From Escherichia coli (GTDB lineage Bacteria > Pseudomonadota > Gammaproteobacteria > Enterobacterales > Enterobacteriaceae): a stretch of DNA of 64,000 nt. Made by a program: the position numbers and the translations under genes. Numbering within the stretch: position 1 is the stretch's first letter; every line of letters begins with the position of its first letter. Where the stretch lies: the NCBI RefSeq assembly GCF_051903065.1, contig NZ_CP178438.1. The stretch is one strand, 5' to 3'. Shown piece by piece: positions 1 to 9,793 of this stretch. Under the pieces are notes generated by a model, which did no database searches, was not told the origin of the DNA, and was given only the letters and a program-made list of their open reading frames with translations.

Positions 1-1291
1 CCCACATGCTCAACATAGAAACCCACATAGCGTAACGGGCGTCACGAGCCCCCTTAAATCCAGCGGGTAGCACCCATGAGGCGGACCAAATAGGCATAAA
101 TAAAGCATTTAGCCAAATCAGAATCACAACGACATGTTTAACCTGTGGATCCTGGGTGTAAAACGATGCCATAACCCCGGCAAAGGGAGCCGTTAGCCAG
201 GCGATGGCCGTTAATCCAAGAGTGGAAAGCCAGAACACATGCCGCAACTGAATCTCTGCTTGCGCTATCTGCCCTACCCCCAACCTTCGGCCTGTAATGA
301 TCGTAGAAGCAGAGCCGAGCGCACTTCCGGGTAAGTTGATAAGAGCCGCAATTGAAAACGCGATAAAATTTCCGGCAATAACACTGGTCCCCATCCCGGC
401 AACGAACATTTGGGTTAATAACCGACCACTGGTAAATAACACTGATTCGACACTCGCTGGAATACCAATCCCCATGACTTCCCAGATAATGCTAAAATTC
501 AGCGGTTTAAAATAGCTCTTTAACGAAATCCTTAGCGCAGGATTAAAACCAATCGCCAGCACCCACAAAATTGCAACTGCGCCAATATAACGAGAAATGG
601 TTAAACCCAACCCAGCCCCGACAAATCCCAGTCCCGGCCAGGAGAAAAGGCCGTAAATCAATATGCCGCTAATAATAATATTAAGAATATTCAGGCTACC
701 GTTAATCAGTAGCGGTATTTTCGTATTCCCTGCACCACGAAGTGCCCCGCTACCAATTAGAGTGATGGCAGCTGCTGGATAACTGAGTACCGTCAGCTCC
801 AGATAAGTCAACGCCAGTGCTTTAACTTCTGTCGTGGCATCACCCGCGACGAAATCAATAATTTGTTCGCCAAAATGATGAATAAGCGTTGCCAACAGTA
901 CGGCAAACAACGTCATGATCACCAATGACTGCCGCGTCGCCACCCTCGCTCGTCGTCGATCCCGCTTACCGAGACTAAATGCCACAACGACAGTAGTACC
1001 AAGATCGATAGCAGCAAAAAAAGCCATAATGACCATATTGAAGCTGTCCGCCAATCCCACGCCGGCCATCGCATCTTTTCCCAGCCAGCTGACCAGAAAA
1101 GTGCTCAGGACACCCATCAACAGGACACAGGCATTCTCCATGAAGATAGGAACAGCAAGCGGGGTTATCTCGCGCCAGAACAACACTTTGTAGCTCTTGC
1201 GTTTAGCGTGCCAGCGAGTGCCGTGAACAACCTGGCGTAAAGCAGAGGAGATATTCAAAGCCGACCTTAATTGCAAAAAGTGAAACCACAT
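1..1291 (-). CDS. yeeO: MATE-family efflux transporter, partial (C-terminus lies beyond window start)
   Basis: Minus-strand frame open from window edge to ATG at ~1289-1291; N-terminus MWFHFLQLRSALNISSALRQ..., hydrophobic multi-TM translation. Absent from ORF track because it runs off the edge. Confidence 0.8.
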   Translation of the reverse strand, partial: MWFHFLQLRSALNISSALRQVVHGTRWHAKRKSYKVLFWREITPLAVPIFMENACVLLMGVLSTFLVSWLGKDAMAGVGLADSFNMVIMAFFAAIDLGTTVVVAFSLGKRDRRRARVATRQSLVIMTLFAVLLATLIHHFGEQIIDFVAGDATTEVKALALTYLELTVLSYPAAAITLIGSGALRGAGNTKIPLLINGSLNILNIIISGILIYGLFSWPGLGFVGAGLGLTISRYIGAVAILWVLAIGFNPALRISLKSYFKPLNFSIIWEVMGIGIPASVESVLFTSGRLLTQMFVAGMGTSVIAGNFIAFSIAALINLPGSALGSASTIITGRRLGVGQIAQAEIQLRHVFWLSTLGLTAIAWLTAPFAGVMASFYTQDPQVKHVVVILIWLNALFMPIWSASWVLPAGFKGARDARYAMWVSMLSMW

Positions 1292-1451
1292 TTCAAATAA
1301 TGAGGGAGAATCAGCAAAGCTGCAAAGATTTTCGCCAACAAATTGTCTGCAAATGCAACAAACTGTTGATAGAAACGGCAAACAGTTGGGGAATTTAAAA
1401 ATCGGGTTTGACAAAAGATTTTTCGCCGTTAAGATGTGCCTCAACAGCGAT

Positions 1452-1527
1452 TCCTCTGTAGTTCAGTCGGTAGAACGGCGGACTGTTAATCCGTATGTCA
1501 CTGGTTCGAGTCCAGTCAGAGGAGCCA
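1452..1527 (+). tRNA. asnU: tRNA-Asn (anticodon GTT)
   Basis: 76-nt sequence TCCTCTGTAGTTCAGTCGGTAGAACGGCGGACTGTTAATCCG...GGAGCCA matches the E. coli tRNA-Asn cloverleaf with GTT in the anticodon loop. Which asn locus name applies is inferred from neighbours. Confidence 0.93.
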
Positions 1528-1536
1528 AATTTCTGA

Positions 1537-1564
1537 AAAGCCCGCTTTTATAGCGGGCTTTTTG
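1537..1564 (+). terminator. Rho-independent terminator after tRNA-Asn (possibly bidirectional, also downstream of cbl)
   Basis: GC stem AGCCCGC...GCGGGCT followed by TTTTT. Confidence 0.65.
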
Positions 1565-2515
1565 CTATATCTGATAATCAATTTCCTCTTCACTGTTTTC
1601 CATCACCTGCCGCTTGATATCCTCAACTGAAAGTCCTGCATTACAAAGTTCCAGAAAGCGCCAGACATAGTTACGCTGAAGTTGTCCTCGCTTCAGTCCC
1701 AACCAGACAGTATTAGCATCAAAAAGATGCCGCGTATCCAGGCGGATTAAATTCTTTTCCTCTTGTTCACCGCTGGATTGTTCGGCAACTATTCCGATCC
1801 CAAGCCCAAGAGCAACATAGGTTTTAATGACATCAGAATCCTGCGCACTTAATACAATATCTGCCAGCAAACCTTTGCGGGCAAATGCGTCATCAATACG
1901 TGAGCGCCCCGTAATCCCCTGTCGGTAAGTGATTAACGGCCACTTCGCTATTGATTCCAGCGTCAATGGTGTAATTTGCGTCAAGGGATGATCGAGTGGA
2001 ACAAGCAAACTATGGTGCCAACGAAACCACGGGAAGGCGACGAGCTGCGGGTCATTACTCAAACGCTCGCTGGCGATACCAATATCAGCTTCACCATTAT
2101 GCAACAACGTCGCAATTTCCTGTGGCGTCCCCTGGATTAGCTCGAGCCGAACCTCCGGGAAAAGTTCGCGAAAAGCTTTAATGACCTCTGGCAAGCTATA
2201 ACGTGCCTGAGTATGCGTCGTTGCAATAGTGAGAACGCCAGACGTATCGTTGGTAAACAGGTCTGCAAGCCGACGAACATTACTGGCTTCATTGAGAATA
2301 CGTTCTGCAATGACCAGTAATGCTTTGCCCGGTTCAGTCATGCCCAGCAGTCGCTTACCTCGTCGAACAAATATTTCGATGCCAAGTTCATCCTCCAGTT
2401 CCCGAATATGACGGCTGACGCCTGACTGTGAGGTAAAAAGCATATTCGCAACCTCTGTCAGGTTGTAATCCTGACGTGCAGCCTCGCGGATTATCTTTAG
2501 TTGTTGGAAATTCAC
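1565..2515 (-). CDS. cbl: LysR-family transcriptional regulator Cbl (sulfonate-sulfur utilisation)
   Basis: 316-aa ORF with N-terminal HTH (MNFQQLKIIREAAR...) and LysR substrate-binding domain; position beside nac; start codon appears to be GTG. Confidence 0.88.
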   Translation of the reverse strand: MNFQQLKIIREAARQDYNLTEVANMLFTSQSGVSRHIRELEDELGIEIFVRRGKRLLGMTEPGKALLVIAERILNEASNVRRLADLFTNDTSGVLTIATTHTQARYSLPEVIKAFRELFPEVRLELIQGTPQEIATLLHNGEADIGIASERLSNDPQLVAFPWFRWHHSLLVPLDHPLTQITPLTLESIAKWPLITYRQGITGRSRIDDAFARKGLLADIVLSAQDSDVIKTYVALGLGIGIVAEQSSGEQEEKNLIRLDTRHLFDANTVWLGLKRGQLQRNYVWRFLELCNAGLSVEDIKRQVMENSEEEIDYQI

Positions 2516-2616
2516 GGTAAACTCCGGGCAGTTCAGATTTCCCGTTATTGTTAAAGTCTAATGCCCGGCATAACAAATAATAAAAACCCGCATCTTATTC
2601 CATCCCGATATAACGC

Positions 2617-3534
2617 TTAGCTCACCAATTGCCACTGCCTTTTTTCCATCACTGGAGAACTAATCACTGACATTAACAACTCTTTCACTGCCTGTGCCTG
2701 TGGTGACAAGTTCGCTCTGGCGGGTAAATTTAATGACAAAGAGAGACTCATGGAAGGAGTGGTAATGCGTGACATCCACCCGTTTACTGCGCCACATAAC
2801 GAACGCGCGGCCGATTCAGGTAATACTGCAACGCCCATGCCGCTGGCAATCGCTGCGGTAAGCGTGGCAATAGACTCAATTTCACCAATGACTTTTGCCG
2901 TGAGTCGCCGTAGGGAAAACGCCTCATCAACACGAAGTCTAACAGCGCTGTAATCACTGGGGAGAAAGAGGTTCATTTGTGCAATAGCATTAACATCAAC
3001 GCTTTGCCCCGGGCAATCTTGAGTTCCTACCAGGAAAAGATCTTCTTTCAGCAAAGCCTGACTGGATACCCCAGCCACAGGGGAATGCTCATAAATCACC
3101 GCCATATCGAGTTGGTGATTTATCAGTTTTTCGTTAAGCACTGCACCGCTATTTTCATGAAGATAGATAACGATCTCCGGGAATTCAGCGCGAACCGCCT
3201 GTAATAAGGGCATGGTGATGGATGACGCAGCGGTTCCTGGCGCAAAGCCAATCGAGACTTGCCCCGATAATGCCTGACCAACGTTATGCACCGCCAGTTG
3301 GGCCTGCTCACACTGACGTAAAATGGCCCGCGCATGGGTATAGAGAATTTTTCCGGCGTCTGTTGGCGTAACGCCCCGTTTTGTGCGAATCAAAAGTTGT
3401 TGATTTAACTCACCTTCCAGTGTGGCAACCTGCTGGCTGAGCGCTGGTTGTGCGATATGCAATACTTCAGCAGCCTGAGTCAGGCTACCAATATCTACAA
3501 TTTTTACGAAGTATTTCAGGCGTCTGAAGTTCAT
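2617..3534 (-). CDS. nac: Nitrogen assimilation control protein Nac (LysR family)
   Basis: ORF with internal ATG at 3532-3534 giving MNFRRLKYFVKIVDIGSLTQAAEVLHIAQPALSQQV...; the track ORF is extended 10 codons upstream. Confidence 0.88.
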   Translation of the reverse strand: MNFRRLKYFVKIVDIGSLTQAAEVLHIAQPALSQQVATLEGELNQQLLIRTKRGVTPTDAGKILYTHARAILRQCEQAQLAVHNVGQALSGQVSIGFAPGTAASSITMPLLQAVRAEFPEIVIYLHENSGAVLNEKLINHQLDMAVIYEHSPVAGVSSQALLKEDLFLVGTQDCPGQSVDVNAIAQMNLFLPSDYSAVRLRVDEAFSLRRLTAKVIGEIESIATLTAAIASGMGVAVLPESAARSLCGAVNGWMSRITTPSMSLSLSLNLPARANLSPQAQAVKELLMSVISSPVMEKRQWQLVS

Positions 3535-3586
3535 GTTGCCTCCGGTTTTTAAGAATCGGCCCAAGTGCCGCCATTACTTACAACCA

Positions 3587-3606
3587 GATTGCAAGATGCT
3601 TGCCAG
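3587..3606 (-). promoter_or_regulatory. Candidate sigma-54 (-24/-12) promoter of nac
   Basis: Minus-strand reads CTGGCAAGCATCTTGCAAT, i.e. TGGCAA-N5-TTGCA, a close match to consensus TGGCAC-N5-TTGCA, about 50 nt upstream of the nac start. Confidence 0.5.
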
Positions 3607-3860
3607 TTTTATTTTGGCGTTGATGTACAAGCTAACCAACTGTCAAATAAGAGATTATGATAGATTCGTCATTTGCTCCTTTAATCAGCTGTCGCGTTCC
3701 CCTGCCCTATAAAAGGAGGGTATGCACCACGATGGTTCATTACCCAATAAGATTGAAAGCTCACCACTTTGTTGAAATTGACAGCAAACAAACAAAAAAA
3801 TGCATTTCACCCTTTGACATCACCATGCACTGCCATTAATATGCGCCCCGTTCACACGAT

Positions 3861-3936
3861 TCCTCTGTAGTTCAGTCGGTAGAACGGCGGACTGTTAATC
3901 CGTATGTCACTGGTTCGAGTCCAGTCAGAGGAGCCA
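3861..3936 (+). tRNA. asnV: tRNA-Asn (anticodon GTT)
   Basis: Identical 76-nt tRNA-Asn sequence to the copy at 1452-1527. Confidence 0.93.
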
Positions 3937-3942
3937 AATTCA

Positions 3943-3973
3943 AAAAAGCCTGCTTTCTAGCAGGCTTTTTGCT
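3943..3973 (+). terminator. Rho-independent terminator after tRNA-Asn
   Basis: Stem AAGCCTGCT...AGCAGGCTT followed by TTTTGCTTT; a diverged copy of the 1537-1564 terminator. Confidence 0.65.
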
Positions 3974-3991
3974 TTCTAATTACCAACGCTC

Positions 3992-4924
3992 TTAAAACAT
4001 CTGTCTTGAACCAGAACTAATTTGCACAGGCATTCCCGATCGACGTTGCAACGCAGCATTTGCGCGATTCACATCAACTTCTTGCCCGTTGATAAACGCC
4101 CGCAAAGATGGGGTTACCGGCAATGGCACTTTTCGGTCAGACTCATATTCTGCACGATTGCGCGACAACGGCTCATGAACTTCCAGCCAGTTCGAGCCAT
4201 CTGGTTCAGTGGTGTATTTTACTGGCTGGTCGATAATTTGCACACGCGTCCCAACAGGAACATTATCAAACAGATATTTGATATCGTCATTGCGCAGACG
4301 AATACAGCCCTGACTTACCCGAAGTCCAATACCAAAATTGGCATTGGTACCGTGGATGGCATACAACCTGCCAATATAAATCGCGTACAGCCCCATGGGA
4401 TTATCGGGCCCCGCAGGAACAAATGCGGGCAAACTCTCCCCTCGTTTCGCATATTCGCGCCGAGTGTTCGGCGTTGGCGTCCAGGTTGGAGCTTCTTGTT
4501 TACGTTCAACGGTAGTCACCCAGTTACGCGGGGTTTCTCGCCCAGCCTGGCCGATACCAATAGGAAAGACTTCCACAGTATTACTGTCTGGCGGGTAGTA
4601 ATAAAGACGCATCTCAGCGACGTTAACCACAATCCCTTTACGAACAGTGGCGGGCAAAATCAGTTGCTGCGGAATGGTGAGTTGTGAGCCGGACTTCGGC
4701 AAGAAAACATCAACGCCCGGGTTCGCTTCCAGCATGTTACTTAACCCTTGCCCGTATTGTGCGGCAAAAGTCTCCAGCGGCTGGGTATTGTGATCAGGAA
4801 CAGTTACAGTAAGCGACTGCCCCACTAAACGGCTACCCTCTGGAGGTAATGGATAAGTTACCGCCAGGCTAGTATGGCTGGCAAAAAGCAGAGCAAATGA
4901 GCAAAGAATATTTACACGACGCAT
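3992..4924 (-). CDS. ldtA: L,D-transpeptidase (YkuD/ErfK family), signal peptide
   Basis: Translation [21 protein letters not shown]... with the catalytic region ...[20 protein letters not shown]...; lies beside cobT. Confidence 0.85.
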
Positions 4925-4988
4925 CATGTCCCTTTCCTATGTCGCGAAAGCTATCCGTTAAGTATAGCTTTTATCAGACTTTTCGTTT

Positions 4989-6068
4989 TTAACTGTTCAA
5001 ATCAGAAGTCGTATTCCCCGGTAGAACAATATTACTGGCAGCAAGTTCGCCCATGTTGTTATATATCGCACAGGCAGCTTCGATGATGGGCATCGCCAGA
5101 GCTGCGCCACTCCCCTCACCTAAACGCATCTCCATATCGAGATAAGGCTCCAGCCCCAAATGCGACAGCGCTATACGCGCCCCTTTTTCTGCCGACAGGT
5201 GAGAAGGAATGAGATACGGTTTGATTGCAGGAGACATCTGGCAGGCTGCGAGCGCAGCAGCATAAGAAAGAAATCCATCCAGCAACACGGGTAAACCGCA
5301 GGAAGCAGCGCCTAACATCACGCCAGCCATTCCGACCAAATCAAATCCACCCACTTTTGCCAGAACATCAACGCCATCCTGCGGATTTGGTTGATTCAAC
5401 GTAATCGCCCGGCGCACAACATCAATTTTATTAGCCAGTTTATCTGTCGGCAGGTTTGCGCCAATCCCAACCACTTCTTCAGGATCCCGGCCAGTGATTG
5501 TGCTGACTATTGCTGCTGCCGGTGTCGTGTTTGCCATCCCCAGTTCACCTACACCAAACAGCGTGACACCATTTTTTGCCAGCTCCCGCGTATAACATAT
5601 GACGTCCAAAAGCAACTTTTCAGCCTGACGGCGACTCATTGCCGGAGCTGAAGCAATATTGCCGCTACCTCGTGCGACACGCATGTTGATAAGTCCGGGG
5701 ATAGGCTCAGCACTATCAATACCAACATCAACTACGTGGACGTTAGCGCCCGCTTGTGCTGCCAGCACACACACGCCGGTTGTTCCGCGGGTCATATTTT
5801 CAGCCTGAATGGCTGTCACTTCTTTTGGGGAAATAGCGACCCCTTCCTCCCAGACGCCGTGATCGGCACACATAACCAGTACCGCTTTTTTGCCCACATG
5901 CGGTATGCCATTCAACCCCGGCATTCCCGCCAGTTGTATGGCAAGCGCCTCCAGCCTTCCCAGGCTACCAACAGGTTTGAGTAACCCGTCAATATGCCGT
6001 TGTGCACGCGACATAGCGGCAGGATCGATAGCAGGGATCGTATTCAGTAAATCGGCAAGTGTTTGCAT
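4989..6068 (-). CDS. cobT: Nicotinate-nucleotide--dimethylbenzimidazole phosphoribosyltransferase
   Basis: 359-aa [35 protein letters not shown]...; ATG start confirmed on the minus strand. Confidence 0.9.
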
Positions 6069-6079
6069 GTCACGTCTCT

Positions 6080-6823
6080 TTATAGCAGTGCCAGCAGGAA
6101 GACCAGTTCACCAAGCTCTATAGCAGCTCCCAGCGTATCGCCGGTTTGCCCGCCCAGCGTACGTTTGAGAAGCTGACCGAGGATGAAAATCGCCACCATC
6201 GTCACCACCATAGCAGCCACACCATGCATACCCGGCAATAATACGGCAGCAAAAATAGCGGCTAAGCCGAGTGTGACGCAGGTTTGTCGCCCATCAATTT
6301 TGCCAATGAACACATTGCCAAGCCCTTCTTCCCGGGCATAACGATGACGATACATCAATAATGCGGCAGTCCCGCGGCTGACCGCACATGCTGCCGCCAG
6401 CGATGCAAGGATCGGTTCGCCACGCAGAGCCAACTCGCTTAACACCAGAATCTTTGCCAGTACAACAAAAATCAATGCCAGACCGCCGTGGGTGCCTAAA
6501 CGGCTATCACGCATGATTTCCAACATGCGATCGCGGCTACGTGCAGAAAATACACCATCACAGGTATCGGCGAGGCCGTCCAGGTGGAATCCCCCGGTCA
6601 TCAGCGCCAGCACAAGTACGCTAAACAGTGCCGCCAGTGGTACGCCACACCATGCCTGCAGCACCATGAAGACCAGCCCGCTAATCGCGCCAAGCAATAA
6701 TCCAATTAAAGGAAAAGTAATAATACCGCGAGAATAATGCTCGAAATCCAGTCCCTGGGACCAGCGACGCGGTACAGGCAGACGCGTAATAAATGAGAGC
6801 ATCGCCCAAAATAATTTACTCAT
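6080..6823 (-). CDS. cobS: Adenosylcobinamide-GDP ribazoletransferase (cobalamin synthase)
   Basis: Hydrophobic membrane protein [18 protein letters not shown]...; start overlaps the cobU stop (ATGA). Confidence 0.88.
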
Positions 6824-7365
6824 TTGATTTTTACTCCAATACCCGAAACCACCAGCCATACTTCATTAGCCGCAGCGGCCAGCTGCTGATTTACCCGCCC
6901 GGCAATATCACGAAAATGACGTGCCAGACGACTCTCCGGCACAATCCCCATTCCCACTTCGTTAGTCACTAATACAACCTTTGCGGGGCAACGTTGGCAG
7001 GCAGCAATCAACGACTGAATCTCAGCATTAATCGCCTGTTCCAGCGCCTGATAATCCCATTCATCAGGGTCTTTATCGCCGCCATAATCAAACAACAGAT
7101 TAGTCACCATTGTGGTAACGCATTCCAGCAACACAGCCTCATGCGGGTTAATGTCTGCATGAATTAATTGATCAAGATGTTGCCAGCGCTCCACTGTGTG
7201 CCAGTGCGCCGGGCGGCCTTGCCGATGATGTTCTATCCGTGCAGCCATCTCATCATCAAGGATTTGTGAGGTGGCGATATACAGAACCTGTGAAGAATCC
7301 CCAATAAGCGCCTCTGCATGGCGACTCTTCCCGCTCCGTGCGCCCCCCGTCACCAAAATCATCAT
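6820..7365 (-). CDS. cobU: Adenosylcobinamide kinase / adenosylcobinamide-phosphate guanylyltransferase
   Basis: 181-aa ORF with P-loop GGARSGKS; first gene of the cobUST unit. Confidence 0.9.
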
Positions 7366-7498
7366 ACCGACTCCTGATTCAATTGTATGATGGTATTCAT
7401 TGAACAGAACAATGGATCCCCCACCGTTGCTGACCGCAAAACATTTACGCGATTAATACTGCGCGTAATATAATTAAAAATCCAGCATTCTCAATCCA

Positions 7499-7858
7499 TT
7501 ACGAAAGAAGATGGCATTGTGGAATAGCCAGACTTCCTCGTGTTAACGTCCGACAAAATGCGTCATTGACAGCGGTTTCTCTGGAATGACAGATTTCATT
7601 CAGATAATGGATTAATGCTACAGCCCCACCAGCCGGACCAGTCAGTAAACGGGCATTGTGTTCTGCAATCAAAATTACCGTCGTTCCCTCAGAATGAGCG
7701 AGCCATTCTGGTACGGATATCTCGCTTTCAGCTGCTATCAATAGCTGCACTGAATAATCGCTATACGCATCTGATAATGATTGCACAGACCCACCGTTAA
7801 GAGGCTGGAAATCTTGCTGCCAGTCCTCACGGATAAAACCGCAGCCTCTACAGTGCAT
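7499..7858 (-). pseudogene. Unassigned 119-aa ORF in a degenerate region; possibly a remnant of the ancestral cbi/pdu locus, or spurious
   Basis: ORF with ATG start directly upstream of cobU on the same strand; no recognisable motif; in Salmonella this position holds cbiP. Confidence 0.25.
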
Positions 7859-8133
7859 TGTTGGTCAGTGCCTGCGAAGCAGACATTATCGCGCTGGTGC
7901 TTAATGCGGACGCACCGTGGTCACCTTTTTCGCCTGGCTTTATCTCGTCAATGAATCGTCCGATCATTGGAGTAGTCACCAAAGCAGATTTAGCCAGCAT
8001 GGAAGAAATATCTTTGGTGAAAGTTTGGTTACGGGAAGCTGGATCGCACAACGTGTTAGTAACCAGTGCGGTTAATAACAATAGAGTTGCAGAACTTTTT
8101 GCCTTGCTTCATACAGAAGATGTCTGTCGCTAA
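7837..8133 (+). pseudogene. EutP/PduV-family GTPase fragment (C-terminal part only, no P-loop)
   Basis: Translation ...[55 protein letters not shown]... resembles the EutP/PduV C-terminal half; the frame is closed by a TAA at 7834-7836, so the N-terminal Walker A region is missing. Confidence 0.5.
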
Positions 8134-8233
8134 TTTCGATAGGTTATCAGATGGGAATGATGACTGTGATACACAGAAAAGAATCAATGAGCAATGAGGG
8201 TTGCCGGGCAACCCTCATTGAATAAAACAGGAA

Positions 8234-8563
8234 TTACTTCGCTTCGCCGTTTTTCATTTCGCCCATAGCTTTCAGCTTCTTGGAGATATCGCGGCGTTCT
8301 TTGGAGAGCTCGGCATTTTTGATGATGTAATCGTCAACGCGATCTTCATAGTCACCTTTCATGCTAGCGATGATGCCCTGGATTGCTTCAACGCTCATCC
8401 CCGGCTTGATGTAATCACTCAGGTTGTCCAGCAACAGGACGCGCTTCTGGTTGTCACGGATCTTTTTCTCAACGTCCTGAATTTCACGTTGCAGTTTGTT
8501 CTTACGACGGAACAGACGAACAAATTCCAGTACGTCCTGGAATGAAGGCTTGGTAGTTTCCAT
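8234..8563 (-). CDS. yeeX: UPF0265/DUF496 family protein
   Basis: Internal ATG at 8561-8563 gives [38 protein letters not shown]... Confidence 0.85.
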
Positions 8564-8734
8564 TTTTATACCCCTGATAATGTGAGAGTCGGATTCGTTT
8601 AAGCAACCGCTATTCGTTAGGGCCAACATTACTCATAGCTGCCGCAGATGACAATGCTTTTATCCCTTTTCACTATCATACCCTTTATCCTTGCTGAATC
8701 GAAGCAGCAGCAAGATGATTCTGAAGTTCAGGAA

Positions 8735-9793
8735 TTATTTGCGCAAGGCCCGGCAAATCAGATTCGATAGCAACTCAAGCTGATGTGCCGTTTCCATGTT
8801 CAGCCACACATAACCATAGATTGGTGTTTCCACAACCTTCAGGTCATGGTGGTTATTGAGCAACTGACGCAGCTCTTCCACAGCATCGTTCAATTTTTCC
8901 GTATTGGCAAAAACCGGCTGCGGATTACCTTCGTACAGCGCATGAACAAGGCTCAGCAGTATTTGCTGCATCATGTGCTGGGTATCACGAAGTTTTTGCG
9001 CGTTCAATAACACGAAATGGCTGGGGCGCGTGGCCCAGTACGCATTGATTTGCAACTCCAGCATACAAACCAGATTGCGATTAATGGTCTGGATACCTTC
9101 ATATATCGATTTTGGAATACGAGTTTCTTTGCTGGCGGGCGCAATCAGCCCACGCATTTTCACGGCATCGGTCAAGAGTTTTTGTAGATGGCTTTCCAGA
9201 CGTGGGCGTTCGAGTAAGTTCGGTGAGAATGCAGATTGATAGACCCGATTATACTCGGTCAGACTTTTCGCCAGTTGAATACGCCAGTGGATGAACGCCC
9301 GTTGTGGCCAGATACCGGTAAACAACATTGCCAGTAAAGAGCCGAGGATCACATCGCCGCTTCGCCATAACGCCGTATCAATTTCACCTGTCGGGGAACC
9401 CACAACAATTGCCAGCGTCACCCCAATCAATAATCCTTGATACGGTTTCTTGCCCAGCGCCAGCCAACCGCAAAGAAACATAGCCGCCGCGCACCAGACT
9501 AACATCAGCGGTAACGAAATTAACTCCAGTTGCAGAGCGATAAGACCTAAAATCGAACCCAACACCGTACCGCCAATACGTTCGAAGGCGCGAGGGACAA
9601 CGTTACCCCAGAACGAGATTGGCCCCATAATCACCACCATGGTGACCAGCGGCCAGGTGCTTTCCGGGATAGTAAACAGGCGGATAATGAGAAAAGTGAG
9701 CAGGAATGCCAGCGCGACCCGAGTACCATGCACAATGCGGTAATGGCGGTATACCCGGATTTCAAACGGGCTTAATGACTTATCGGCACGCAC
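8735..9793 (-). CDS. yeeA: Inner-membrane protein, putative transporter (FUSC/ArAE-like)
   Basis: 352-aa hydrophobic N-terminal half plus soluble C-terminal domain; apparent GTG start. Confidence 0.8.
   Translation of the reverse strand: MRADKSLSPFEIRVYRHYRIVHGTRVALAFLLTFLIIRLFTIPESTWPLVTMVVIMGPISFWGNVVPRAFERIGGTVLGSILGLIALQLELISLPLMLVWCAAAMFLCGWLALGKKPYQGLLIGVTLAIVVGSPTGEIDTALWRSGDVILGSLLAMLFTGIWPQRAFIHWRIQLAKSLTEYNRVYQSAFSPNLLERPRLESHLQKLLTDAVKMRGLIAPASKETRIPKSIYEGIQTINRNLVCMLELQINAYWATRPSHFVLLNAQKLRDTQHMMQQILLSLVHALYEGNPQPVFANTEKLNDAVEELRQLLNNHHDLKVVETPIYGYVWLNMETAHQLELLSNLICRALRK

Follow-up and report, generated by a model that had tools for sequence, protein, structure and literature searches.

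In the 64-kb stretch of Escherichia coli DNA analysed here (the window), the genes cbl and nac are flanked by two of four identical, independently transcribed tRNA-Asn (asn) genes, and it is highly probable that these two copies, asnU and asnV, constitute a low-frequency substrate for homologous recombination. The copies occasionally recombine, which is ordinary repeat-mediated genome plasticity, and the recombinant products are found in natural genomes. The feature itself is the canonical, already known yeeO-asnU-cbl-nac-asnV-ldtA region of E. coli; the locus is a textbook one, the additions made here are modest and the current view of repeat-mediated rearrangement is unchanged.

Anatomy of the locus and limits of the repeat

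Exactly two tRNA genes were found in the window by ARAGORN, both on the + strand: asnU at 1452-1527 and asnV at 3861-3936. Both are tRNA-Asn(GUU) genes with the anticodon GTT at position 34, both are annotated in RefSeq and each scores 72.6 bits against Rfam family RF00005, the gathering score of which is 29; the Rfam scan of positions 1-9000 returned no RNA family besides these two. The neighbouring protein genes are read from the - strand. The 5' part of yeeO (1-1291, MATE efflux transporter) is divergent from asnU and was placed by the RefSeq annotation of ECNB21-M121, to which the window stretch is 100% identical and in which the order is yeeO, tRNA-Asn, cbl, nac, tRNA-Asn, ldtA. Between the repeats lie cbl (1565-2515), a CysB-like LysR regulator recognised by the equivalog NF009324 with 685 bits (cutoff 491), and nac (2617-3534), the nitrogen assimilation control regulator, recognised by the equivalog NF008410 with 601 bits; ldtA (erfK; 3992-4927; NF007563, 697 bits) codes for an L,D-transpeptidase and is convergent with asnV, and the annotation agrees for all three genes. 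The cbl stop codon TAG (1567-1565) abuts the hairpin T_U described below. The mechanical open reading frame of nac runs to 3564 and the annotated start is at 3534, the NF008410 match covering residues 11-315 of the long frame. A sigma-54-type promoter motif, TGGCAAGCATCTTGCA, was located upstream of nac by pattern match (3590-3605, - strand), and nac expression is NtrC/sigma-54 dependent. The NtrC regulon list includes both nac and cbl (PMC9853098).

The preliminary description of this DNA spoke of two identical tRNA-Asn genes in direct orientation around cbl-nac, about 2.4 kb apart, and of a repeat of about 110 bp which extends into closely related terminators. All of this was borne out by sequence comparison. 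The 76-nt genes are direct repeats identical at 76 of 76 nt, and the perfect repeat comprises 84 nt (CGAT, 4 nt, then the tRNA, then AATT, 4 nt) at 1448-1531 and 3857-3940 on the + strand, with a start-to-start distance of 2409 bp. Over the 3' flank of ~47 nt the copies agree at 75.5%, four gap positions included; identity over the entire unit of 133 and 129 nt (1448-1580 vs 3857-3985) is 91%, and outside this unit it falls to the background of ~50%; "about 110 bp" is thus a fair description of 84 bp of perfect and ~45 bp of imperfect likeness. The perfect part exceeds the minimal efficient processing segment of ~25-30 bp, the minimum usually quoted for RecA-dependent exchange and reportedly due to Shen and Huang in 1986.

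On the 5' side only promoter elements are common to both copies (-35 TTGACA, -10 TAAGAT or TAATAT, GC-rich discriminator), the 60 nt upstream of asnU and asnV being otherwise ~51% identical. The promoter-like site of asnU (1408-1435, +; 10/12 matches in a consensus scan) consists of TTGACA, a 16-nt spacer and TAAGAT followed by the GC-rich discriminator; that of asnV (3814-3842, +; consensus scan), divergent from nac, consists of TTGACA, a 17-nt spacer and TAATAT with the discriminator GCGCCCCG. The same architecture as at asnU is present at all four asn genes, and these sites are putative promoters judging from their sequence. In E. coli K-12 the four genes form the cluster asnT, asnW, asnU, asnV near 44 min. 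A passage of PMC8209727 gives the four E. coli asn genes as 100% identical; in ECNB21-M121 all four carry the same 84 nt, and the terminator is common to asnU and asnV only.

This terminator is a putative hairpin designated T_U after asnU (1535-1563; core GCCCGC/GCGGGC between an A-run and a T-run) and T_V after asnV (3943-3970; core GCCTGC/GCAGGC). The gap-free segments 1536-1566 and 3943-3973 are 77% identical, the likeness runs into the hairpins themselves and the stems differ by one compensatory change. Folding on the + strand gave -19.5 kcal/mol (z -5.0) for T_U and -18.0 kcal/mol (z -4.8) for T_V, on the - strand -17.7 kcal/mol (z -5.2) and -17.1 kcal/mol (z -3.5) respectively, and 0 of 200 shuffles folded as well as either. 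Past both hairpins there is UUUUU on the + strand, and on the - strand UUUU (T_U) or UUUUUU (T_V), so both possess a GC-rich hairpin with a U-run on each strand, as is characteristic of bidirectional intrinsic terminators; a simple terminator scan reported T_V and not T_U. It can be said that T_U probably ends both the asnU (+) and cbl (-) transcripts, and that T_V would be a bidirectional terminator common to asnV (+) and ldtA (-). Each asn copy would accordingly have a stable-RNA-type promoter and a bidirectional hairpin terminator to itself.

Conservation and the origin of the two copies

Of 5,426 complete E. coli genomes, 5,418 carry the pair cbl-nac, and 4,500 of 5,424 show the whole 6-kb arrangement without interruption. 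Outside the species, an asn-nac-cbl module is conserved in at least 15 enterobacterial genera: 68 of 77 Enterobacteriaceae loci have an asn gene directly upstream of nac, 24 of 77 have one directly after cbl, and 91 of the 92 asn genes at these nac/cbl loci are identical to the 76 nt of the window. The 3' flanks are 86-100% identical within one genome in Atlantibacter, Enterobacter, Lelliottia, Pseudocitrobacter and Kosakonia, as compared with between-genome medians of 77-82%; the terminators of these genera co-vary within a genome, which suggests gene conversion. In Escherichia T_U and T_V are 70-74% identical to each other and each is 88-90% conserved between species, so gene conversion there stops at the tRNA. 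The two tRNA-plus-terminator cassettes are probably paralogues, the identity of the tRNA being maintained by selection and gene conversion.

The likeness of T_U and T_V could also be a convergence of generic "AAAAGCCCGC...GCGGGCTTTT" intrinsic terminators, the true repeat being the tRNA only. A GC-clamp hairpin between A- and T-runs is a common terminator design, the 3' flanks of asnT and asnW are unrelated, and the separate conservation of the differing Escherichia hairpins points in the same direction. Nevertheless, we consider convergence very unlikely, for the likeness continues beyond the hairpin (GCT..TCTGATAATCA vs GCT..TCTAATTACCA), the sole difference in the stem is the compensatory pair, and idiosyncratic loops are common to both copies within a genome and different between genera (GCTTAAGGAAACTTAAGC in Atlantibacter, GCTTAGGAAACTAAGC in Citrobacter braakii).

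The four asn tRNA genes are a recognised pathogenicity-island hotspot (HPI, pks), and islands with integrases were verified at asnU and asnV in other E. coli strains, in agreement with the preliminary description, which had called asn genes classic integration sites. The same description had seen no integrase or island at either copy of the window, and this holds: no integrase adjoins either tRNA according to open reading frames, profile matches and annotation, the neighbours being cbl and ldtA. An old genomic island inserted in a single asn gene, with the two tRNAs as its duplicated attachment site, is nonetheless conceivable in principle, as these genes are classic island sites and the segment is bracketed by direct repeats which contain the tRNA 3' end. 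This explanation is extremely improbable and was rejected because of the promoters, the wide conservation, the base composition and the lack of mobility genes. The tyrosine integrase expected by a tRNA 3' end, present in the island loci L090, L091 and L002, is missing from the window together with any other mobility gene. Instead of a partial 3'-end repeat of ~17-24 nt, such as the real one at 893-913 of L002, the second window copy is, like the first, a whole gene preceded by a promoter of its own. The GC content of cbl-nac (46-50%) matches the flanks and the pair is near-universal in E. coli, whereas patchy spread and odd composition are expected of an island; the conservation of the module in so many genera also speaks against it. 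Finally, the ends of true islands at these tRNAs are of another kind: they show a 17-nt repeat, and a conserved leader separates the left junction from the integrase gene.

Recombinant products in natural genomes

The 5,426 complete genomes, surveyed as assemblies and not as raw reads, were searched with two synthetic junctions. The deletion probe (asnU upstream flank, asn, asnV downstream flank) revealed a contiguous hybrid junction, continuing through the asnV terminator into ldtA, in 35 of 5,426 genomes; these comprise clean cbl-nac deletions (at least three unrelated lineages), a 30-genome clone and SL112. The precise deletion, annotated as yeeO-asn-ldtA, was confirmed by inspection in MEI3O-23, AH20K059 and Esc20, which carry different yeeO and ldtA protein alleles and so represent at least three independent events; the junction score of CNR20180903 equals that of Esc20. 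In MEI3O-23 the single asn gene has the 5' flank of asnU and the 3' flank of asnV, base for base (alignment A3). Clean deletions amount to ~0.1% of genomes. SL112, a laboratory-strain record, was rejected as a product of asn x asn exchange: in it a cbl fragment of 91% identity is enclosed by two asn genes that lie 200 bp from each other.

In the 30-genome clone, which from its strain names may be ST457, cbl-nac has been relocated to adjoin asnT. The order in MRY15-117 is [T6SS island, asn 3'-end fragment]-T_U-cbl-nac-asn-[island]-yeeJ..yeeN-[island]-asnW-yeeO-(asnU promoter-asn-T_V)-ldtA, and in 2016C-3878 this T6SS island is preceded on its left by mtfA-asnT, while ldtA again adjoins the hybrid. 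The two segments delimited by the three direct copies asnT, asnU and asnV have here changed places.

The amplification probe, nac-(asnV promoter)-asn-T_U-cbl, was contiguous in 0 of 5,426 genomes, a count made on assemblies, which transient unstable duplications could escape. The copy-number survey proposed in the preliminary description thus found cbl-nac essentially single-copy (at most two places per genome, median 1) with rare deletions, and of its proposal that the repeat is a substrate for deletion or amplification only the deletion and relocation half was observed. Capture of an excised cbl-nac circle by a plasmid gained no support from PLSDB: most full-length matches there are megabase or several-hundred-kb records resembling mislabelled chromosomes or chromosome fragments, and a few are smaller (145 kb, 82 kb).

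Species-wide, ~14% of genomes have an interrupted nac-asnV-ldtA junction and ~4.6% an interrupted yeeO-asnU-cbl junction; the observed causes were islands, the asnW x asnV inversion and asnU/asnV recombinants. Such an inversion of a 4.3-kb segment in pks-positive B2 strains is described in a passage of Auvray et al. 2021 (PMC8209727), and clone D i2 was confirmed to have the yeeO-cbl-nac segment (4.3 kb) inverted between asnW and asnV.

It is proposed that the 84 bp of perfect identity serve as a low-frequency substrate of homologous recombination. If asnU and asnV of one chromosome crossed over, T_U, cbl and nac would be released as a circle together with the promoters of nac and asnV, and there would be left in the chromosome one seamless hybrid gene made of asnU promoter, asn and asnV terminator; the excised circle could then re-enter at another asn copy. 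As the crossover takes place within 84 identical bases, homologous and site-specific recombination are indistinguishable from the product, and RecA-dependent homologous recombination, rather than an integrase, is the inferred agent.

It is rather unlikely that the deletions and the relocation are site-specific and were performed not by RecA but by P4-type tyrosine integrases of asn islands (HPI, pks, T6SS/RHS). The attachment site would in that case be the 3' end of every asn gene, and an island-occupied asn gene would recombine with another full asn gene or with a distal att repeat, cbl-nac being excised or moved in a composite element. The 30-genome clone does have P4-type integrase genes abutting asnT, the nac-side asn and asnW, and its T6SS island is separated from T_U by a 17-nt repeat of the asn 3' end; other strains have integrase islands at asnU or asnV; according to a passage of PMC8209727, pks inserts at asnU, asnV or asnW; and in Salmonella Enteritidis an asn x asn excision with a circle accompanies the island ROD21 (PMC3198454). 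In the clean-deletion strains, however, neither the hybrid asn nor asnW is accompanied by an island or an integrase over the ~5-6 kb inspected to either side. Integrases do not canonically recombine two bacterial-type sites with each other, nor a left junction with a bare site, and the perfect identity is well above the usual RecA minimum.

Returning to homologous exchange, it is conceivable, and here our confidence stays somewhat below even, that an asn gene with its bidirectional terminator is a portable homology cassette across Enterobacteriaceae, the copies being homogenised by gene conversion, in many genera into the terminator, and the modules between asn genes being shuffled. If this were true, exchanges would shuffle cbl-nac, yeeO, yeeJ-yeeN and resident islands, and cbl-nac would be in effect an excisable and re-insertable chromosomal module. 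In one Salmonella record yeeO-asn-ldtA is present with no cbl-nac at the site, and no Salmonella is found among the 80 best Cbl loci; Salmonella is not known to carry nac. Deletion by asn x asn exchange is a candidate explanation for the missing cbl-nac of that record; under the cassette proposal the loss would have arisen by this kind of exchange and become fixed. In natural strains the short repeats known for islands are also the points at which two global regulators, Nac for nitrogen and Cbl for sulfonate sulfur, are lost or moved, and this should be kept in mind when gene presence or absence, or synteny breaks, are read in the asn region. It also concerns strain engineering, since the deletion leaves no seam and costs the genome one of its tRNA-Asn genes.

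Relation to known systems

The window has the same genes, order, orientation and spacing as the asnU-cbl-nac-asnV locus of E. coli K-12; nothing structural differs, the strain being non-K-12 with cbl-nac ~98.4% identical to that of K-12. Insertion of pks, HPI and ICE at asn tRNA genes is described in passages of Auvray et al. 2021 (PMC8209727) and Schubert et al. 2009 (PMC2606025). As far as these passages go, the same repeats are the points of integration and of the asnW-asnU-asnV inversion, neither of which is present in the window; the precise cbl-nac deletion and the segment swap between asnT-asnU and asnU-asnV do not appear in them.

Like asnU and asnV, rrn operons and tRNA gene families are direct, identical stable-RNA genes between which DNA can be deleted, duplicated or transposed. 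Multicopy stable-RNA families undergo concerted evolution, and here gene conversion evens out the paralogues and in some genera also their flanks. The homology of rrn operons extends over kilobases, whereas the asn repeat has 84 bp, and with so short a homology events are rare; duplications were not seen at the asn repeat in the 5,426 genomes.

A parallel for excision is found in Salmonella Enteritidis, where PCR revealed that the DNA between two full asn copies can leave as a circle (2011, PMC3198454). There, as here, two complete direct asn genes recombine into a circle and one hybrid asn. The DNA excised in Salmonella Enteritidis includes an integrase-bearing island, and the event was seen by nested PCR only, whereas the E. 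coli products are fixed in natural lineages and the window is island-free.

The asn repeats and their terminators

In the 64-kb window ARAGORN detects exactly two tRNA genes, asnU (1452-1527) and asnV (3861-3936). Each is a + strand tRNA-Asn(GTT) scoring 72.6 bits in Rfam, and their sequences do not differ. The ORFs between them match the regulators Cbl (NF009324, 685 bits) and NAC (NF008410, 601 bits), and the ORF after the second tRNA encodes the L,D-transpeptidase LdtA. Over its first 6 kb the window is 100% identical to E. coli ECNB21-M121, where RefSeq annotates yeeO, tRNA-Asn, cbl, nac, tRNA-Asn, ldtA and cobT; the locus is the canonical asnU-cbl-nac-asnV of E. coli. Two further tRNA-Asn genes of ECNB21-M121, asnT and asnW, lie upstream of this stretch. 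A sigma-54-type motif (TGGCAAGCATCTTGCA, 3590-3605, - strand) was recognised by sequence match upstream of nac, and PMC9853098 counts both nac and cbl as members of the NtrC regulon. The mechanically called nac ORF (2617-3564) begins with TTG ten codons 5' of the annotated ATG (3534); the NAC model matches it from residue 11 only, which supports the annotated start.

The perfect direct repeat comprises 84 nt (1448-1531 and 3857-3940, spacing 2409 bp). With the 3' flank the unit reaches about 130 nt at 91% identity, beyond which similarity drops to the background of about 50%, and on the upstream sides only promoter elements are common. The 84 nt are identical in all four asn genes of ECNB21-M121, which also have a common promoter design (TTGACA, a 16-17 nt spacer, TAAGAT or TAATAT, a GC-rich discriminator), while the 3' hairpin is found only at asnU and asnV. 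These hairpins, T_U and T_V respectively, are 77% identical without gaps (75.5% over flanks of about 47 nt with gaps allowed), and the sole difference in their stems is a compensatory pair (GCCCGC/GCGGGC vs GCCTGC/GCAGGC). Each is placed between an A-run and a T-run, and folding energies on the two strands are about equal (-19.5, -18.0, -17.7 and -17.1 kcal/mol). The cbl stop codon lies directly against T_U and that of ldtA about 20 nt from T_V, and both hairpins are probably bidirectional terminators common to the convergent pairs asnU/cbl and asnV/ldtA. The preliminary description of identical direct tRNA genes with related terminators around cbl-nac is accurate, since repeat, hairpin and flank measurements agree; its statement that neither copy has an integrase or island also holds for the window. 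The segment lacks an integrase, and its GC content is that of the flanks.

Beside cobU, positions 7499-8133 hold a hypothetical ORF together with an EutP/PduV pseudogene fragment. The two resemble what is left of the cbi/pdu region, which is complete at the matching position in the 30-genome clone treated below (pocR, pduF, pduA-T, cobalamin riboswitch; L002 and L093, about 24-41 kb). By colinearity with ECNB21-M121, checked for 1-6000 only, the window from about 9000 to 64000 holds ordinary core genes: sbmC, dacD, sbcB, tsuAB, plaP, the his operon, wzzB-ugd-gnd, an O-antigen cluster of the O38 family, galF, the cluster for colanic acid, and yegH.

Deletion and relocation in E. coli genomes

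The repeats had been proposed as a substrate for deletion or amplification of cbl-nac, with RecA as the presumed agent, and the survey of 5,426 complete E. coli genomes supports deletion and leaves amplification unsupported. A synthetic deletion junction (window 900-1531 joined to 3941-4572) was contiguous in 35 genomes and a synthetic tandem-duplication junction in none; the cbl-nac interior was present in 5,418, at a median of 1 and a maximum of 2 places. The yeeO-asnU-cbl junction was unbroken in 5,177/5,424 genomes and nac-asnV-ldtA in 4,664/5,424, where, among the matches listed, partial ones end at or just past the tRNA 3' end. Broken junctions in inspected examples are explained by an island with integrase at asnV (strain H5) or asnU (CFSAN029787), or by asnW x asnV inversion, reported for pks-positive B2 strains (PMC8209727) and verified here in clone D i2. 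Some PLSDB "plasmids", ranging from several hundred kb up to several Mb (CP148755.1, NZ_OL790696.1, NZ_CP141089.1 and alike), carry chromosomal core genes (cbl-nac, cob operon) and are apparently whole or partial chromosomes under a wrong label.

Strains MEI3O-23, AH20K059 and Esc20 have the order yeeN-asnW-yeeO-asn-ldtA-cobT, with a single asn and no cbl-nac between yeeO and ldtA; CNR20180903 equals Esc20 by junction score alone. The surviving asn has an exact asnU 5' flank and an exact asnV 3' flank (alignment A3). Because yeeO and ldtA protein alleles differ among the three strains, their sequences indicate at least three independent deletions. Strain SL112 (L004 4553-4960, NZ_CP043486.1) was rejected as an asn x asn product: there an asnV-type terminator comes after asnU, then a 150-bp piece from inside cbl that matches the window at only 91%, a second asn without native promoter, T_V and ldtA. 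This structure points to another deletion, older-looking or non-homologous.

Thirty genomes score alike against the deletion junction at 97.7% identity, and two of this clone were inspected. In MRY15-117 the left part (window orientation) reads T6SS island, T_U, cbl-nac, asn, integrase island, the T6SS island ending before T_U in a 17-nt repeat of the asn 3' end; the right part reads yeeJ...yeeN, island with integrase, asnW, yeeO, a hybrid asn (asnU promoter-asn-T_V) and ldtA. In 2016C-3878 the hybrid asn likewise adjoins ldtA, and the T6SS island, the same one, has mtfA-asnT-[integrase...] at its left end. The asnT-asnU and asnU-asnV segments have thus traded places, as expected if an asnU-asnV circle had been excised and had re-entered at asnT. 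Relative to MRY15-117 (L093/L094), 2016C-3878 (L002) is without yeeJ-shiA-amn-yeeN; at the junction stands the same IS3 transposase allele (WP_152895938.1), suggesting a secondary IS3-associated deletion.

Intrachromosomal homologous recombination between the 84-bp direct copies is the simplest explanation of the hybrid products, given the perfect identity and the exactness of the products; the crossover point cannot be seen inside identical sequence. Exchange of asn copies by island integrases instead of RecA is a serious rival, if the less likely one: the relocated clone abounds in asn-targeting P4-type integrases, and excision between two complete asn genes was seen beside an integrase island in Salmonella Enteritidis (PMC3198454). 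The three clean-deletion strains have no island within roughly 5-6 kb on either side of the junction, and integrase exchange would account for the relocation more readily than for these clean deletions.

Related arrangements in other Enterobacteriaceae

The best 80 Cbl loci of species-representative genomes span Escherichia, Citrobacter, Klebsiella, Enterobacter, Kosakonia, Kluyvera, Leclercia, Atlantibacter and other genera, with no Salmonella among them. Where both cbl and nac occur, asn sits close upstream of nac in 68 of the 77 loci and no more than 120 nt past cbl in 24, and 91 of 92 such adjoining asn genes are identical to that of the window. Outside Escherichia, several genera have a tRNA-Ser about 1 kb beyond the asn that follows cbl; this spacing matches asnT-mtfA-serU of E. 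coli and points to an asnT equivalent, on which reading two direct asn copies in Escherichia would enclose about 17 kb of additional DNA (yeeJ...asnW-yeeO). The arrangement of modules around asn copies varies by genus: in Klebsiella, Raoultella and one Enterobacter sp. (L038, L063, L073, L074, L077, L081, L085) the order is asn-nac-cbl-ldtA, with ldtA right after cbl and no asn between, which differs from Escherichia and Citrobacter.

The 3' flanks of both copies within one genome are 86-100% identical in Atlantibacter, Enterobacter, Lelliottia, Pseudocitrobacter and Kosakonia, as against medians of 77-82% between genomes, and Citrobacter has two hairpin types, each found at either position. 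Gene conversion (concerted evolution) reaching the terminator would produce this pattern. In Escherichia, where identity is 70-74% between the two hairpins and each is 88-90% conserved between species, conversion apparently stops short of it.

A single chromosome fragment of Salmonella Infantis, which carries a plasmid label in its deposit, reads asnW-yeeO-(asnU-like upstream flank)-asn-scar-ldtA-cobTSU, with an island-type scar of about 170 nt and no cbl-nac. This fits, and does not prove, a fixed loss at these repeats; another kind of deletion is possible because the asnV-type terminator is missing too. The asnW 3' flank just upstream of the window (L001 19440-19627) and a Salmonella stretch (L092 9229-9400) both align with the leader of the 2016C-3878 P4-type-integrase island (left junction to integrase gene), and are island scars at asn genes without integrase.

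Relation to published asn sites

No description of precise cbl-nac deletions, the segment swap, apparent bidirectional terminator use or terminator concerted evolution was found in the consulted parts of the literature on asn sites. The structure itself is an already known E. coli locus, and both asn genes as island sites and asn-mediated inversion are published; the deletions, swap, apparent bidirectional terminator use and concerted evolution are outcomes to be expected from known mechanisms.
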